A stretch of DNA of 64,000 nt from Spirochaetia bacterium (lineage in GTDB: Bacteria; Spirochaetota; Spirochaetia; WTKD01; G963693115), in assembly GCA_965226055.1 (NCBI GenBank), contig CBDDCA010000005.1, positions 192,001-256,000 of the forward strand, written 5' to 3'. The notes below the pieces were generated by a model, which saw only the letters and a program-made list of their open reading frames with translations, was not told where the DNA came from and searched no databases. Below, one piece after another: positions 1,591 to 59,281 of the stretch; position 1 is the stretch's first letter; the number at the start of each line of letters is the position of its first letter. The translations under genes were made by a program, and so were the position numbers.

Positions 1591-2685
1591 ATGCAATTTA
1601 TTGCTGAAATAGGGTCTGCACACGCAGGGTCTCTTTCACAAGCGAAAGAACATATTATAGCAGCAAAAGAAAGTGGTGCTACTACTGCAAAATTTCAATG
1701 GATTATCGCAGACGAAATTGTAAGTGATACTGTTGGGGATATGCATTTTGGTAACACAACATTTAATTTACATCATACATTCAAGCAAGTAGAAAAAGAT
1801 ATTGAATTTTATCAACAGCTAAAAGAGTACACAGAAAACCTTGACTTACAATTTCTCTGCTCTGTGTTTGGAATACAATCACTTCATCAATATCTACAAC
1901 TAGAACCGTCAATCATTAAAATTGCATCTCCAGAAATCAATCATATTCCACTGTTACAAGAAATTTCAAAAAATAACGCAAGCATATTACTTTCTACTGG
2001 ACTTGCAACACTTATTGATATACAAATATGCCTTGATATTCTCATACAAAAAAACACAACTATAGAACATAACAATAGACACAACAGTACTCCACATACT
2101 GTACAGTTACTCCATTGTGTAACAGCCTATCCTGCCAACTATAATGAGTACAACCTCTCTTTATTGCACACGTATCAGCAATTTTTTACTGATACTGTAG
2201 GTATTTCTGATCATAGTAATTCTATAGCATTACTTGCTGCTACCTCATTGCTGTTTGGATCTAGTATCATTGAAAAGCATTTTTGCATAACAAAAACAAC
2301 ACATAACATAGATAATACAGTAGCATTATCTCCTCAACAGTTTTCTACTATGGTACAAGCATGCAAACAAATAGAAACATTGCTCAACAATACATCCAAC
2401 AGTATAGATACTTCTCATTCCTCTATCACGCAAGATATAGTGCTATTTCTCAGGGATATTGCAGAACAAGAGCATCATCAATTTGATGTACAATCACTTC
2501 TCAAAGCAACAGATTGGCAAAGCCCTGCACTGCTTGATATATACTATAGTTCCCGTAGAAGTGTATTTTCAAAACAACATAGCAAAAAACCTTCCTCTAT
2601 CTCGCTTGATGATATTGTAATCTTACGAAGTGAAAAAAATATCCAACCTGGCATTCCTGCCGAGTACTTACAATACATAGACTAG
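1591..2685 (+). CDS. N-acetylneuraminate synthase (NeuB/SpsE) family protein
   Basis: FIAEIGxxHxG, AKFQ, KIASPE, LSTG, LLHCVTAYP, GISDHS and IEKHF motifs; short SAF-like tail. Confidence 0.85.
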   Translation: MQFIAEIGSAHAGSLSQAKEHIIAAKESGATTAKFQWIIADEIVSDTVGDMHFGNTTFNLHHTFKQVEKDIEFYQQLKEYTENLDLQFLCSVFGIQSLHQYLQLEPSIIKIASPEINHIPLLQEISKNNASILLSTGLATLIDIQICLDILIQKNTTIEHNNRHNSTPHTVQLLHCVTAYPANYNEYNLSLLHTYQQFFTDTVGISDHSNSIALLAATSLLFGSSIIEKHFCITKTTHNIDNTVALSPQQFSTMVQACKQIETLLNNTSNSIDTSHSSITQDIVLFLRDIAEQEHHQFDVQSLLKATDWQSPALLDIYYSSRRSVFSKQHSKKPSSISLDDIVILRSEKNIQPGIPAEYLQYID

Positions 2686-2721: not shown

Positions 2722-2804
2722 AGCCTAAGCAAAGCTCCTTTGTCCAATAGGTATAGCTTAGTGAAATTAAGATTTTTCACACTTAGGTTAGCTTTGCTTA
2801 GGCT
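2722..2804. repeat. 83-bp element with perfect 15-bp terminal inverted repeats
   Basis: AGCCTAAGCAAAGCT (2722-2736) is the exact reverse complement of AGCTTTGCTTAGGCT (2790-2804); small internal hairpin GTGAAA/TTTCAC at 2761-2780. Confidence 0.7.
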
Positions 2805-2841
2805 CTATAGCAAGAAAGGAAATACTCCTTTCTTGCTATAG
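2805..2841. repeat. 37-bp palindrome (16-5-16) downstream of lipoprotein L1; terminator-like or recombination-site-like
   Basis: CTATAGCAAGAAAGGA-AATAC-TCCTTTCTTGCTATAG, 19 bp from the L1 stop codon; identical arms at 49093 and 54192. Confidence 0.9.
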
Positions 2842-2860
2842 GCATATTTCTATGTATCTA

Positions 2861-5800: not shown

Positions 5801-7689
5801 AGCTTGCTTAAAAGTTGCTTTTATTTGTATAGCTCCTGTTTTGTCAAGGGTAGGCTTGCTTTGAAAGAGATCTTCTGAGGGGGCTGTGAGTGAGTTGGGG
5901 GTGGTTATGTCTTTTGTTGCTTGACTACTTTTGTTTTCTGAGTAATCAAGCGTGAGTATTGTTATGGTATATGTTTTTCCTTGCACAAGTTCTTCTACAG
6001 AGAGTGACTTTGTGGGATAGGGTATTTTCTTCTCGCTCAGTACTGCAGTGCTTGTGCCTTTCTCTGCTATGCTTATGCTGTATTCTTTTATGTCCTTGTT
6101 ATTGGCTTTTGTTGTATCGGGTGCTGTCCATGTTATCTGCGTGCCTATCTTTGCTGCTGATACAAAGGGATAGCTTGCTTGTATGCTTGTTACTGCATCG
6201 GGGGCGGTGCCATCATCTACTGTGGTGGTGGTTGCTGTTATTTTTGCTCCTTTGTTGCCTGTGTAATCTTGTGACTGTACTGCTATGCTGTACTCGGTAG
6301 TGGCTTTGAGGCCTGTTATCTGCGTGTTTCTTAGTGTTCTCTCTGTTATTGTTACTGTCTTTGCTGCTGTTGTGCTGTCCTTTTCTGTTGCTGTTATAGT
6401 CACTCCTGCATAATCTCGTACATCGGGGGCTTGCCAGCCTACTACTATGCTTGTTGCTCCTCCTATGGCACTTACATTGCTTACAGGCTCTGTGCTTTTG
6501 TCTGTTGTTGCTTGTTCTTTTGACACTGCAGTGGAGTACTTTCCGTTTTTAAAAACATACACTTCTACTTTGTACGTAAGCGTGCCGTAGAGTTTTGTGA
6601 GTGCTATGCCATCTTTTGCTACATACACAGTGGCGTACTCTCTGTTGTCTGCACTTGCTCCGCTGACATTGGTTGTACTTGTATCTTTGTCTATTGTTTC
6701 TTCTGCTACTACTGTATTGGTTGCGGTTGCTGTTACTCGTACTTGCAGGCTTTTGTCTGTAAAAGTAAAGCTCCCCCACTTGATAAGCAGGCTTTCATCG
6801 GCTGGGCTATTGCTTTTATCGTTTGCTGTTACTGTAAGGTTTGCCTCTGGCAGTGGCGTTACTGTTTGTGAGAGTGCTGATGGCACTATGCCTCTGAGTG
6901 CTTGCTTTGCCGTGCTTTTGTTACCGTTGCTATCTTTGTATACTACTACTATATCATAGCTGATGCCATCTATAGTGGGGACAGCAATGCTCACCTCTCC
7001 TTGTGTTACATCTTGTACTGATACTTCTGTCTTTACATTAGTAGTTTTTTCTATCACCTGTATTGTGGCTTCGGCTATGTCTGTCTTGCCTGACGAGAGC
7101 AGTGCTTTGTCCCATGTTAGCTTTATACTATCGTTTTGTGCTTTCTCTACTGCTACCCGTGTAAAAGTGTCCTGTGGTGCAGTTTCATCGGTAAGTGTTG
7201 TCACAGAGCGTGTTGTTTTTGGTGATATTTCTGTGTCTGAGCCTGTGTCTGATTTTTGGGCTTCTATCTCTACAGTATAATCGGTAGTAGCATGCAAGCC
7301 TCTGAGTGTGTAGGGTCTGTTTTGTTGAAACAATGCACGATATTCTATTGCAGGAACACGCACTTCTATTGATTGTGCTGGTGTCGTTGAAGTTGCTTTT
7401 ACAACTACATGTGTGGCTTCGCTGGGAGCTTGCCAGCGTAACGAGAGCGTCCCATCGTTGCCTGCTACTTGTATCTGCACATTGGACACTGATGCGAGTG
7501 TCGGGGTCACTGGTGTTCCCCCTCCGCCTGAGGAACTGCTACTGCTCTCTGCACATCCTACGAGTACGAGGGTAGTCATTGCTAGCACTGCTAGTATAGT
7601 TAGATTTTGCTTATATCGAGAGTGTACCCCCCCCCCCCCCCGATTTTTTTCAGGCTGTGAAGTTCCTTACTCAACCACATTTTTTTCAT
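2861..7689 (-). CDS. large surface lipoprotein L1 (Fn3/Ig-like stalk + DUF285/BspA-type repeat head); frameshifted at a G15 tract in the signal peptide
   Basis: ORF 2861-7588 carries the LVLVGC lipobox, Fn3-like repeats and six 25-aa MF..A..FNQDI..W repeats. The likely true start is ATG 7689 with an AAGGAG RBS matching L2/L3, 101 nt upstream of the ORF start (out of frame by one G). Confidence 0.88.
7627..7641 (-). repeat. poly-G15 simple sequence repeat (candidate phase-variation tract)
   Basis: 15 consecutive C on the + strand of an AT-rich genome, inside the L1 signal-peptide coding region. Confidence 0.85.
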
Positions 7690-8764: not shown

Positions 8765-8881
8765 TAGATACCTCTTTCAACAATGAAAAATTTTTATTCA
8801 TCATTAATGTTCTTGCATGATCCACAGTATCTCCTTTTCATAAAAACATATCCGCTACTATTCATCCCTCAATAAAATATA

Positions 8882-9880: not shown

Positions 9881-10957
9881 ATGAGTAACATACCTTCCTA
9901 TCAACCAGGAGCCACAGTAGAACAAGGCATAAAACTTTCATCAAACGAAGCTCCGCTTGGAACATCACAGAAAGTCATTGAAGCTATTTGTAAAGCAGCA
10001 AAAAATACGTATCGGTATCCTCAACACAACCATGACACATTACATCATATAATTTCAAAAAAACATGCAGTAGCACAGGACAACATATTATGTGGAAATG
10101 GTTCTGACGAACTTATATGTTTTATCACTCAAGAATACTTACAGCCTAACGATACAGTCATCGTAGGTACTCCTTCTTTTTCTATTTATACTATCGCAAG
10201 CTCTCTTGCAAAAGCTACTGTTATAGCAAGTCCACTAAAAAACTGGCATTTCAATATAGAACATATTCTTGATACTATTGCCAATACAAAAATACTATTT
10301 TTATGTTCTCCTAACAACCCAACTGGCACATGCATAGCTCCACAAGAAATAATGACTCTCCTGCGAGAAATACCAGAGACAGTATATATTGTTCTTGATT
10401 TAGCATATATTGATTTCGTAGAAAAAAAATACACCATAGATTACAAGAGCTTACTTTCTACACATCCAAATATAATACTGTTACATACCCTTTCAAAAGC
10501 ATATGGAATAGCAGGACTTCGAGTAGGGTATGCTATTGCAAACACACAGATCATTTCTGCACTCACTCCTCACCGTATGCCTTTCAATATCAATACTCTC
10601 GCCTTTATTGGAGCAAAAGAAGCACTTTTAGATACTGTACACTATACCAATACATTACAGCATGTAGAGAAAGAAAGAGCACGATTACTAAAAGAGTATA
10701 CACAACTAGGGTGTAATCCTATACCAAGCCAAGCAAATTTCATTACTCTGTTTCCTCCCCTTTCTTCTCGTATAAAAGAATATCATAAAAAACATGGTAC
10801 TATAGCTCAAGCCATATTTCATTATTTTTTACAACAAGATCCTCCTATTAGCATACGACCGCTTAATTCATTTGGACTTGATTCTGGCATACGCATAAGT
10901 ATAGGAACAGAACAAGAGAATAATCTTGTTCTTAGTAGACTTTCACAGCTGATTTAA
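9881..10957 (+). CDS. hisC: histidinol-phosphate aminotransferase family (PLP class I/II)
   Basis: LSSNE.P, GNGSDELI, PNNPTG, DLAY, TLSKAYGIAGLRVGY and RISIG motifs. Confidence 0.85.
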   Translation: MSNIPSYQPGATVEQGIKLSSNEAPLGTSQKVIEAICKAAKNTYRYPQHNHDTLHHIISKKHAVAQDNILCGNGSDELICFITQEYLQPNDTVIVGTPSFSIYTIASSLAKATVIASPLKNWHFNIEHILDTIANTKILFLCSPNNPTGTCIAPQEIMTLLREIPETVYIVLDLAYIDFVEKKYTIDYKSLLSTHPNIILLHTLSKAYGIAGLRVGYAIANTQIISALTPHRMPFNINTLAFIGAKEALLDTVHYTNTLQHVEKERARLLKEYTQLGCNPIPSQANFITLFPPLSSRIKEYHKKHGTIAQAIFHYFLQQDPPISIRPLNSFGLDSGIRISIGTEQENNLVLSRLSQLI

Positions 10958-25075: not shown

Positions 25076-25136
25076 TGCAGATTCAAGTATTAAATGCGAC
25101 AAAGGAGCAAAAAAAGAGCAAGCAAAAATAAAAAAC
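25076..25136 (+). repeat. dispersed short repeat (MITE/IS-end-like), partial copy
   Basis: TGCAGATTCAAGTATTAAATGCGACAAAGGAGCAAAAAAAGAGCAAGCAAAAATAAAAA is shared with 30046-30117, 54165-54191 (reverse) and 59149-59208. Confidence 0.7.
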
Positions 25137-29084: not shown

Positions 29085-29304
29085 AACTAAGCCTCCCAGC
29101 CTTATATGAATAATTATAATACAGATAATTGTTTCATGCAATACATAATTGTTGATTGTGCAAACACAAACATTACGCACTTGGCATAATAGAAATTTTG
29201 CGGTATACTGATTTTATCTCAAGAGAATCACACGAAAGGTAAAACTACACTAAAAAAAATTAGAGGCTAGCATTGATAACTAAAAAACGAGATAATTCAC
29301 GTAC

Positions 29305-30045: not shown

Positions 30046-30117
30046 CACGAGTTCAAGGATTAACTGCGACAAAACACGAGTTCAAGGATTAAATGCGACA
30101 AAGGAGCAAAAAAAAGA
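30046..30117 (+). repeat. tandem 29-bp duplication of the dispersed repeat end
   Basis: CACGAGTTCAAGGATTAACTGCGACAAAA (30046-30074) followed by CACGAGTTCAAGGATTAAATGCGACAAAG (30075-30103), then GAGCAAAAAAAAG. Confidence 0.8.
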
Positions 30118-40809: not shown

Positions 40810-40839
40810 AGCAAATGTATACTTTAGTATACATTTGCT
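40810..40839. repeat. perfect palindrome/hairpin (14-2-14)
   Basis: AGCAAATGTATACT-TT-AGTATACATTTGCT. Confidence 0.8.
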
Positions 40840-40863: not shown

Positions 40864-40889
40864 TGCTATACACTATTGAGTGTATAGCA
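40864..40889. repeat. perfect hairpin (11-4-11), possible terminator of lipoprotein B
   Basis: TGCTATACACT-ATTG-AGTGTATAGCA, 40 bp past the stop at 40930. Confidence 0.75.
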
Positions 40890-48211: not shown

Positions 48212-49000
48212 ATGAATGTTATTATACAAGAGGACTATCACGCTATATCTCACTATGTTGCTCACTACACAACACAAAAAATACAGTCAAAAACTACCAA
48301 CACAGCAGAAACACATACTATGTTTGTACTAGGGTTACCTACAGGATCAAGCATCATAGGTACTTATCAAGAGCTTGTGCATTTGTACCAACAAAAAAAA
48401 GTATCATTTAAGCATGTCATCACATTTAATATGGATGAATATGTAGGGCTGAAATCAGATCATCCACAGAGTTATAGCTATTTTATGCATTCCCACTTAT
48501 TTAATCATATAGACATAGATCCTAACAATATCCACTTATTCAATGGATGTAGCAACAATACAGAGACACAACTTCAAAACTATGAGACAGCTATACAGCA
48601 ATCTGGTGGCATTGATCTCTTCCTTGGAGGCATAGGACAAAATGGGCATCTTGCTTTTAATGAACCATATTCTTCTCTTCGCTCTTATAGTCATTATCAA
48701 CTATTAACACAAGATACTCGGCTTGCTAATGCACGTTTTTTTGACAACACTATGGAGAAAGTACCAACAGCAGCGTACACTGTAGGAATACAAACTATCA
48801 TGGACGCTCGTGAAGTGCTTATTATCGCAAGCGGAATAAACAAGGCCGAAGCGCTCTCTCGTGTTATTGAAGGAAACATATCTCATAGCTGCCCTGCGAG
48901 TATTTTACAGTTACACCCACATGCCACTATAGTATGTGATACAGAAGCTTGCAGTGCCTTAGCGCCCGAAACATATCAATACTTTCTCTCTTTACAATAA
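48212..49000 (+). CDS. nagB: glucosamine-6-phosphate deaminase
   Basis: LGLPTGSS, TFNMDEYVGL, HPQSY, GGIDL.LGGIG.NGHLAFNEP, TR.ANARFF and PAS.LQLH motifs. Confidence 0.96.
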   Translation: MNVIIQEDYHAISHYVAHYTTQKIQSKTTNTAETHTMFVLGLPTGSSIIGTYQELVHLYQQKKVSFKHVITFNMDEYVGLKSDHPQSYSYFMHSHLFNHIDIDPNNIHLFNGCSNNTETQLQNYETAIQQSGGIDLFLGGIGQNGHLAFNEPYSSLRSYSHYQLLTQDTRLANARFFDNTMEKVPTAAYTVGIQTIMDAREVLIIASGINKAEALSRVIEGNISHSCPASILQLHPHATIVCDTEACSALAPETYQYFLSLQ

Positions 49001-49092
49001 AATTGTATCTAAGTGCAGATTCATGGAGTATTACTCTCTCGTACGCTCTATCAAAGATGCCTTAGAAACACTTTTTTGCTACTCTTGAGGTT

Positions 49093-49129
49093 CTATAGCA
49101 AGAAAGGAGTATTTCCTTTCTTGCTATAG
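49093..49129. repeat. 37-bp palindrome (16-5-16) downstream of L2
   Basis: CTATAGCAAGAAAGGA-GTATT-TCCTTTCTTGCTATAG, 21 bp from the L2 stop. Confidence 0.9.
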
Positions 49130-49150
49130 GTGTGTATGTATCTCTCTATG

Positions 49151-54164: not shown

Positions 54165-54191
54165 CTGTCGCAATTAGCCCTTGAATCTGCA
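54165..54191 (-). repeat. dispersed repeat end abutting the L3 palindrome
   Basis: Reverse complement TGCAGATTCAAGGGCTAATTGCGACAG matches the 25076 and 30046 copies. Confidence 0.7.
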
Positions 54192-54228
54192 CTATAGCAA
54201 GAAAGGAGTATTTCCTTTCTTGCTATAG
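54192..54228. repeat. 37-bp palindrome (16-5-16) downstream of L3
   Basis: Identical to 49093-49129; 19 bp from the L3 stop. Confidence 0.9.
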
Positions 54229-54247
54229 GTTGTATTGCTACACTATG

Positions 54248-59148: not shown

Positions 59149-59208
59149 TGCACGAATTCAAGGAACAAAAAAGAGCAAGGAAAATAAAAATTAGTCCTTG
59201 AATCCGCA
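59149..59208. mobile_element. MITE-like copy of the dispersed repeat with both ends
   Basis: TGCACGAATTCAAGGA...TCCTTGAATCCGCA inverted ends around an A-rich core shared with 25076-25136; non-coding. Confidence 0.45.
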
Positions 59209-59281
59209 AAGATTATTTCTTTAAAACAACTTTTTTTAATTTGTTATATAATAAACATAACTAATTTATTAAGGAGGGTAT

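Follow-up and report, generated by a model that had tools for sequence, protein, structure and literature searches.

Why should three large genes in one stretch of spirochaete DNA each be followed by the same palindrome, and how did the asymmetric core of that palindrome come to be reversed at one of them? The genes, here L1 (2861..7689), L2 (49151..53950, 1599 aa) and L3 (54248..58945, 1565 aa, in tandem with L2), all lie on the minus strand of the window, by which we mean the whole 64-kb stretch that was analysed. Their products of ~1570-1600 aa are putative lipoproteins that combine Fn3 with DUF285; in L1, Fn3 repeats precede a C-terminal DUF285/PARCEL head. An earlier note on this DNA left the choice between a cis-acting site for head exchange or duplication and a conserved terminator or stabiliser that had undergone micro-inversion. 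It is the second option that our analysis supports: the palindrome is restricted to the 3' ends of L genes, its stem changes on both sides, its core has flipped repeatedly, and another hairpin can replace it. We propose that it is probably a 3' terminator or stabiliser hairpin of this gene family, reshaped by template switching, and that it likely acts on RNA.

The hairpin in the window

The exact 16-nt arm occurs twice after each of the three genes, at 2805/2826, 49093/49114 and 54192/54213. The resulting hairpins, which we call type A, occupy 2805..2841 (L1), 49093..49129 (L2) and 54192..54228 (L3) on the minus strand, and are separated from the stop codons by spacers of 19 nt (2842..2860), 21 nt (49130-49150) and 19 nt (54229-54247), respectively. 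On the plus strand the core reads AATAC at L1 and GTATT at L2 and L3, even though all three genes are on the minus strand; on the gene strand this gives GTATT, the G-first orientation, at L1 and AATAC at the other two. Palindrome and flipped core are thus both as the earlier note had described them. Nine matches to the arm with three or fewer mismatches are present in the window, a count reached by none of 100 shuffles, and a hairpin scan returned the three L hairpins as the longest-armed perfect hairpins of the window. Their folding z-scores range from -4.9 to -9.1 on either strand.

No other gene in the window has a copy of the hairpin 3' of it. Rfam and tRNA scans of the window gave no match, and the 81-nt site compared with plasmids and phages gave chance matches only (E 2-8). 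Two plus-strand genes converge on these hairpins, a neuB-family gene (1591..2685) on that of L1 and a nagB-like gene (48212..49000) on that of L2.

Copies in a related chromosome

The protein search found 78 relatives among 7997 candidates scored, most of them on contigs of two assemblies. The genome scan returned 35 loci (L001-L035; 802,275 distinct bases), all from OZ244590.1, the 2.36-Mb chromosome of a Spirochaetia MAG, of which they make up about one third. This chromosome is ~95% identical to the window (housekeeping genes 93-96%), and its loci hold 41 dispersed 3' ends of L-family genes. A hairpin or its remnant lies just after the stop codon at 40 of these 41 ends: 26 are of type A, 14 have a different hairpin, type B, in the same slot, and one has neither. 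Degenerate copies (one of the 26 of type A, at L020, and three of the 14 of type B) were left out of later counts, giving a type A set of 28 copies, 25 from OZ244590.1 and three from the window, and a type B set of 11.

No type A copy was found away from L 3' ends in the ~894 kb of window and loci, and a type A covariance model run over these 893,665 bases scored its 28 training sites at 46 bits or more and nothing else above 17 bits. REP sequences are repeated extragenic palindromes that are dispersed after unrelated genes. The L hairpin is like them in being a repeated extragenic palindrome with insertion sequence (IS) ends beside some copies; we rejected the REP assignment because the copies are confined to L-family 3' ends. 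An automated call places a convergent gene opposite 14 of 29 type A copies. As a separate observation, 39 of the 41 L ends would, by their strand, be co-oriented with replication if, as we infer, the origin is near 2.3 Mb.

Variation of the stem and replacement by a second hairpin

The palindrome had been called an invariant 16-5-16 structure. This holds for the three window copies and fails once relatives are included, as both arms are exact in only 10 of the 28 copies. Length is 37 bp in 12 copies, 36 bp in another 12 and 35 bp in four; arm spacing varies by up to 2 bp, and several different core sequences occur. Across the set, 96.7% of stem cells are paired and five of the 14 stem pairs never vary. 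Two-sided changes affect three stem pairs (four cells), levels reached by 3 of 500 and 1 of 500 shuffles, which are not to be read as probabilities; such changes are few, and template switching can make them without selection on structure.

Mean pairwise identity among type A copies is 94% in the arms and 61% in the spacer, whose divergence the earlier note had seen; the corresponding values are 68% in the final 48 bases of coding sequence and 56% in the tail beyond the distal arm. Arm conservation of this degree exceeds structural demand, and gene conversion or protein binding could contribute to it. It also bears on the possibility that the palindrome is not under selection for any function, is carried along by L duplications and owes its integrity to template switching and paralogue conversion alone. 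Inverted repeats are conserved in bacteria, and template switching alone can conserve perfect ones, according to PMC5941160; moreover, the L020 copy is degenerate, the L012 copy is truncated, one L gene has neither hairpin, and type A lacks a canonical U-tract. However, the arms are conserved well beyond the spacer and tail beside them, homogenisation makes the two arms agree without keeping a single sequence constant from locus to locus, and a different hairpin fills the same slot where type A is missing. Absence of function is, in our judgement, improbable.

Intact type B (11 copies) consists of an A-tract, an 8-bp stem, a short loop and a U-tract, with an average of ~6 T in 8 on either strand, and in its sequence it resembles the layout of a bidirectional intrinsic terminator. 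Type B flips as well, with TAT as its loop in three copies and ATA in four, and in five of the 11 the arms reach 17-20 bp through added sequence that matches the opposite side.

Inversion of the core

Core orientation is divided 17:11 among the 28 type A copies, and three exact core sequences are present in both orientations. On a tree of the adjacent ~180 nt, orientation needs 10 changes (shuffled mean 8.8) and does not cluster, and at least three are forced by its well-supported branches. Because this tree is poorly resolved, with 4 of 25 branches starred, and the genes themselves are mosaics, the number of flips is to be taken as a range. The sister copies L024 and L027 have a distinctive spacer in common and opposite cores. 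At L004, the locus of the L1 orthologue, 2865 nt of flanking sequence are 95.6% identical and the core, which differs by one substitution, is oriented as in L1; this suggests that flipping at this locus is not very rapid.

Two simpler accounts were rejected or disfavoured. Assembly artefact is excluded by the presence of both orientations in an independent assembly and by the retention of the L1 orientation at L004. Under a single ancient inversion, identical core changes would have had to occur twice, as mirror images, and the well-supported branches of the tree force at least three changes of orientation.

The inverted spacer is an exact reverse complement between arms that are kept, the change is recurrent, and the arms are homogenised. 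These are the features expected if loops flip by template switching, a route that the earlier note had named, and we consider it very probable that the flips were made in this way. Arm homogenisation and spacer inversion through template switching are described in PMC8604942 and PMC8794818, and with the inverted repeats of those two sources and of PMC5941160 the L hairpins have in common the exactly reverse-complemented loop, the two-sided arm changes and the stem extension. They differ from the loop inversions of rRNA, which PMC8794818 gives as rare (69 cases), in showing a near-even mix of orientations across 28 paralogous copies. The predicted energy of either core on either strand is -23.2 kcal/mol; with the stem energy unchanged in this prediction, flipping should be close to neutral and both orientations would persist.

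A second inverted repeat abuts the L1 hairpin (2722..2804; 15-bp arms, 53-nt spacer). It is paired at 15 of 15 positions in the window and at 9 of 15 in L004, and is a footprint of arm homogenisation. There is a caution in these results: when three paralogues share what seems an invariant palindrome, and one of them has the asymmetric core reversed, copying and template switching can suffice as the cause, with no recombinase involved. Conversely, 28 type A and 11 type B natural copies make a compact set for the study of loop inversion in bacteria.

Recombinase sites and diversity-generating retroelements

Tyrosine-recombinase sites such as loxP, FRT and dif have inverted arms around an asymmetric centre. 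The L hairpin resembles them in layout, and a reading as such a site, used to move or invert L genes, would also fit the dispersal of these genes, their differing presence in the two genomes and the high conservation of the arms. However, unlike loxP, FRT and dif, the L hairpin is fixed neither in spacing (35-37 bp overall) nor in core, its arm changes are two-sided, as for a structure, and neither an enzyme, among the ORFs searched, nor a recombinant junction, among the 28 sites, was found. One L gene lies on the same side at all 28 sites, none of which is gene-less or tail-to-tail, and the orthologous L1 site at L004 keeps both flanks. Exchange between opposed cores would, furthermore, be expected to join gene ends rather than to flip a core between fixed flanks. 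We regard a recombinase site as highly improbable.

Neither an integrase nor a reverse transcriptase was found in the 37 window ORFs (Pfam) or in the 430 of 487 non-L flanking ORFs that are 120-650 aa long. The search of flanking ORFs used PHROGs at E<=1e-12 with no positive control, spans a third of one chromosome, and gave 11 transposase ORFs as its only integration-class matches. Integron attC sites were likewise set aside, with no attC-type core motif evident by eye against the consensus and no integrase found among the ORFs searched.

A variable C-terminus with a hairpin immediately 3' of it is also the layout of a diversity-generating retroelement (DGR) target (PMC3240598), which would here act on the heads. 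The variation of the heads is of another kind: of 35 hypervariable codons in the heads, not one keeps its third position conserved (mean entropy 1.24 bits), the codons show no adenine-type signature, and heads vary by whole-repeat number and by indels. No template-like copy was found in 866 kb, where the only head-like DNA outside DUF285 ORFs is an L fragment at a locus edge, and no reverse transcriptase lies nearby among the ORFs searched. In BPP-1 both loop size and loop sequence are constrained (PMC3240598), whereas the loops of the L hairpins vary in both and invert. That the hairpin is a DGR target is scarcely credible.

A 3' hairpin for a proposed L transcription unit

A stable hairpin shortly 3' of the stop codon is a terminator feature, and the L hairpins have it. 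They are like the bidirectional terminators and 3' stabilising stem-loops of PMC10319736 in that a strong stem-loop follows the stop by 7-33 nt, the A-rich and U-rich arms are symmetric, the site is often between convergent genes, and type A is interchangeable with the canonical-looking type B. They are unlike those in that type A has a long (14-17 bp), AT-rich stem whose inner GC core is very short, and in that no U-tract follows the full stem. The earlier note was correct that the gene strand has no clear U-tract: no U-run follows the full type A stem, and T averages 2.4 in 10 there against 4.8 on the opposite strand. A U-rich run (5 of 8) is present inside the distal arm, after an inner stem core of only 2-3 bp, and an intrinsic-terminator scan flags the L1 hairpin on the opposite strand. 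In Borrelia, PMC10319736 reports, 44.5% of ORF-downstream 3' ends were classed as intrinsic terminators by score, and Rho can act jointly with structure.

We propose that the L transcription unit would be self-contained, made up of promoter, RBS, poly-G switch, gene and a 3' stem-loop usable on either strand. Termination could proceed by the weak internal U-rich run, by Rho, or by trimming back to the stem. The hairpin would be copied along with each L gene duplication or conversion, and polymerase template switching between the arms would keep the stem perfect while sometimes writing the loop backwards.

Exchange of heads

The remaining suggestion of the earlier note, head exchange at the palindrome, is half right: exchange between paralogues is real, but the hairpin is not required for it. 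The L genes are mosaic, with best matches in 300-nt windows that switch among paralogues. For L1 the orthologue at L004 is never the top match in these windows, and the L1 head is 95% identical to that of the non-orthologous L002 over ~385 nt, from -590 to -205 relative to the stop. This clearest tract ends ~225 nt before the hairpin, and type A and type B genes have 60-70 nt C-terminal segments in common (97-100% identity, ending just before the stop), from which it follows that exchange can do without the hairpin.

A weaker form of the suggestion deserves separate treatment. The terminator-like hairpin might double as a break-prone cruciform and downstream homology anchor, where gene conversion of the heads starts or ends, and so shuffle the PARCEL heads with no need of a recombinase. 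Between spacer similarity and tail similarity there is no link in the 10 copies whose tails are homologous (r 0.15, p 0.14), whereas spacer and C-terminus (r 0.42) and tail and tail (r 0.64) are linked. Several common tracts, such as that of L028/L034, have their end within the loop or at the distal arm. There is also a precedent: PMC6011951 describes the DHS of Borrelia hermsii as an extragenic inverted repeat of similar size (31 bp), downstream of variable surface-lipoprotein genes in a spirochaete with gene conversion, and as required for switching. However, adjacent segments within the head are equally weakly linked (r 0.09 twice), the clearest tract stops 205 nt before the stop codon, and many others end within the gene. 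Compared with the DHS system, the L family has no 214-bp common block and neither a single expression site nor a silent archive of cassettes, the copies examined each having a promoter-like region and an RBS; one third of its members have a different hairpin. We therefore think an anchoring role unlikely. Were it true, it would mean antigenic variation that needs neither an expression site nor a silent archive, among ~40 dispersed lipoprotein genes each with a poly-G switch, and frequent repair at the hairpin would flip the loop as a side effect.

Tails beyond the hairpin and insertion sequence ends

Homology had been said to stop exactly at the distal arm. This is so among the three window copies, but comparison with relatives shows that the L2 tail continues: ~70 nt beyond its distal arm (49025..49092, minus strand) are common to other L copies of OZ244590.1. 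Over the 80 nt past this arm, nine of 27 other copies exceed the shuffled 99th percentile, three of them over ~70 nt, and the L1 tail matches its orthologue and, marginally, one more copy. The last part of this common tail (window 49025-49045) is similar to the proximal arm of type B, with equivalent tails at L001, L005, L011, L015, L018, L021, L028 and L032, so types A and B may have a common origin in a 3' region with both hairpins.

At L3 the edge is sharp because an IS30-type terminal repeat (54166..54191, minus strand) lies flush against the distal arm. The motif is dispersed, with 27 matches in window and loci. It is read as an IS30-type terminal repeat because a pair of such motifs flanks a transposase with HTH_38 and rve domains at L021 (15594-17735), a combination that we take to denote the IS30 family. 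Solo ends or MITE-like remnants of this type occur in the window at 25076-25101, 30049-30100, 54166-54191, 59160-59215 and 49014-49026. A short, degenerate end closes the L2 tail, which places L2 between inward-facing ends; no target duplication was seen at L2. Such ends may explain some L duplications. As a general rule, IS-bounded L cassettes were rejected, as IS30-type ends lie near only 14 of 44 L genes by a loose motif (within 500 nt upstream or 450 nt downstream). At L012 (14503-14570) a truncated type A hairpin joins an IS30-type end through ~9 nt of microhomology and gains a T-run. Six near-identical HTH and rve transposases with a 12-bp hairpin in the left end, presumably IS481-like, are found at L007, L009, L012 (two), L018 and L024, and right-end fragments of this element follow some L tails.

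The L gene family

The palindrome is unremarkable as a hairpin, and more notable is the gene family: a single spirochaete chromosome has ~40 Fn3/DUF285 lipoprotein genes that are mosaics and are probably phase-variable. A literature search found no description of such a family among the titles listed. A tract of G11-G18 is present in the signal-peptide region in 32 of 38 L genes examined, around 9900-10000 in loci L001-L035; a further six of 44 could not be anchored. In L1 it is a G15 tract (7627..7641, minus strand), a candidate phase-variation switch, and in this assembly the long ORF, on the far side of the tract, is not in frame with the first ATG that follows the RBS; the tract is missing from L2 and L3. 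Each L unit examined has its own promoter-like region and RBS, and the poly-G tracts suggest a bank of individually phase-variable surface lipoproteins.

Presence of L genes differs between the window and OZ244590.1 at compared loci. Where the window has ~95 bp (29158-29253), including the remnant of an end of a second IS family, L030 (9740-21145) has 11.4 kb that hold an L gene and a 1400-aa HNH/RuvC (Cas9-like) gene. A 292-aa ORF with no Pfam family, beside a DNA methyltransferase gene at L004 (7917-8792), is missing from the window at ~8786-8795, and is possibly a restriction endonuclease lost from it. Finally, other DUF285 genes are also followed by long, perfect, AT-rich hairpins, with arms of 11-18 bp and unrelated sequence (window 40810-40839 and 40864-40889; L008 1363-1400; L024 4855-4891).
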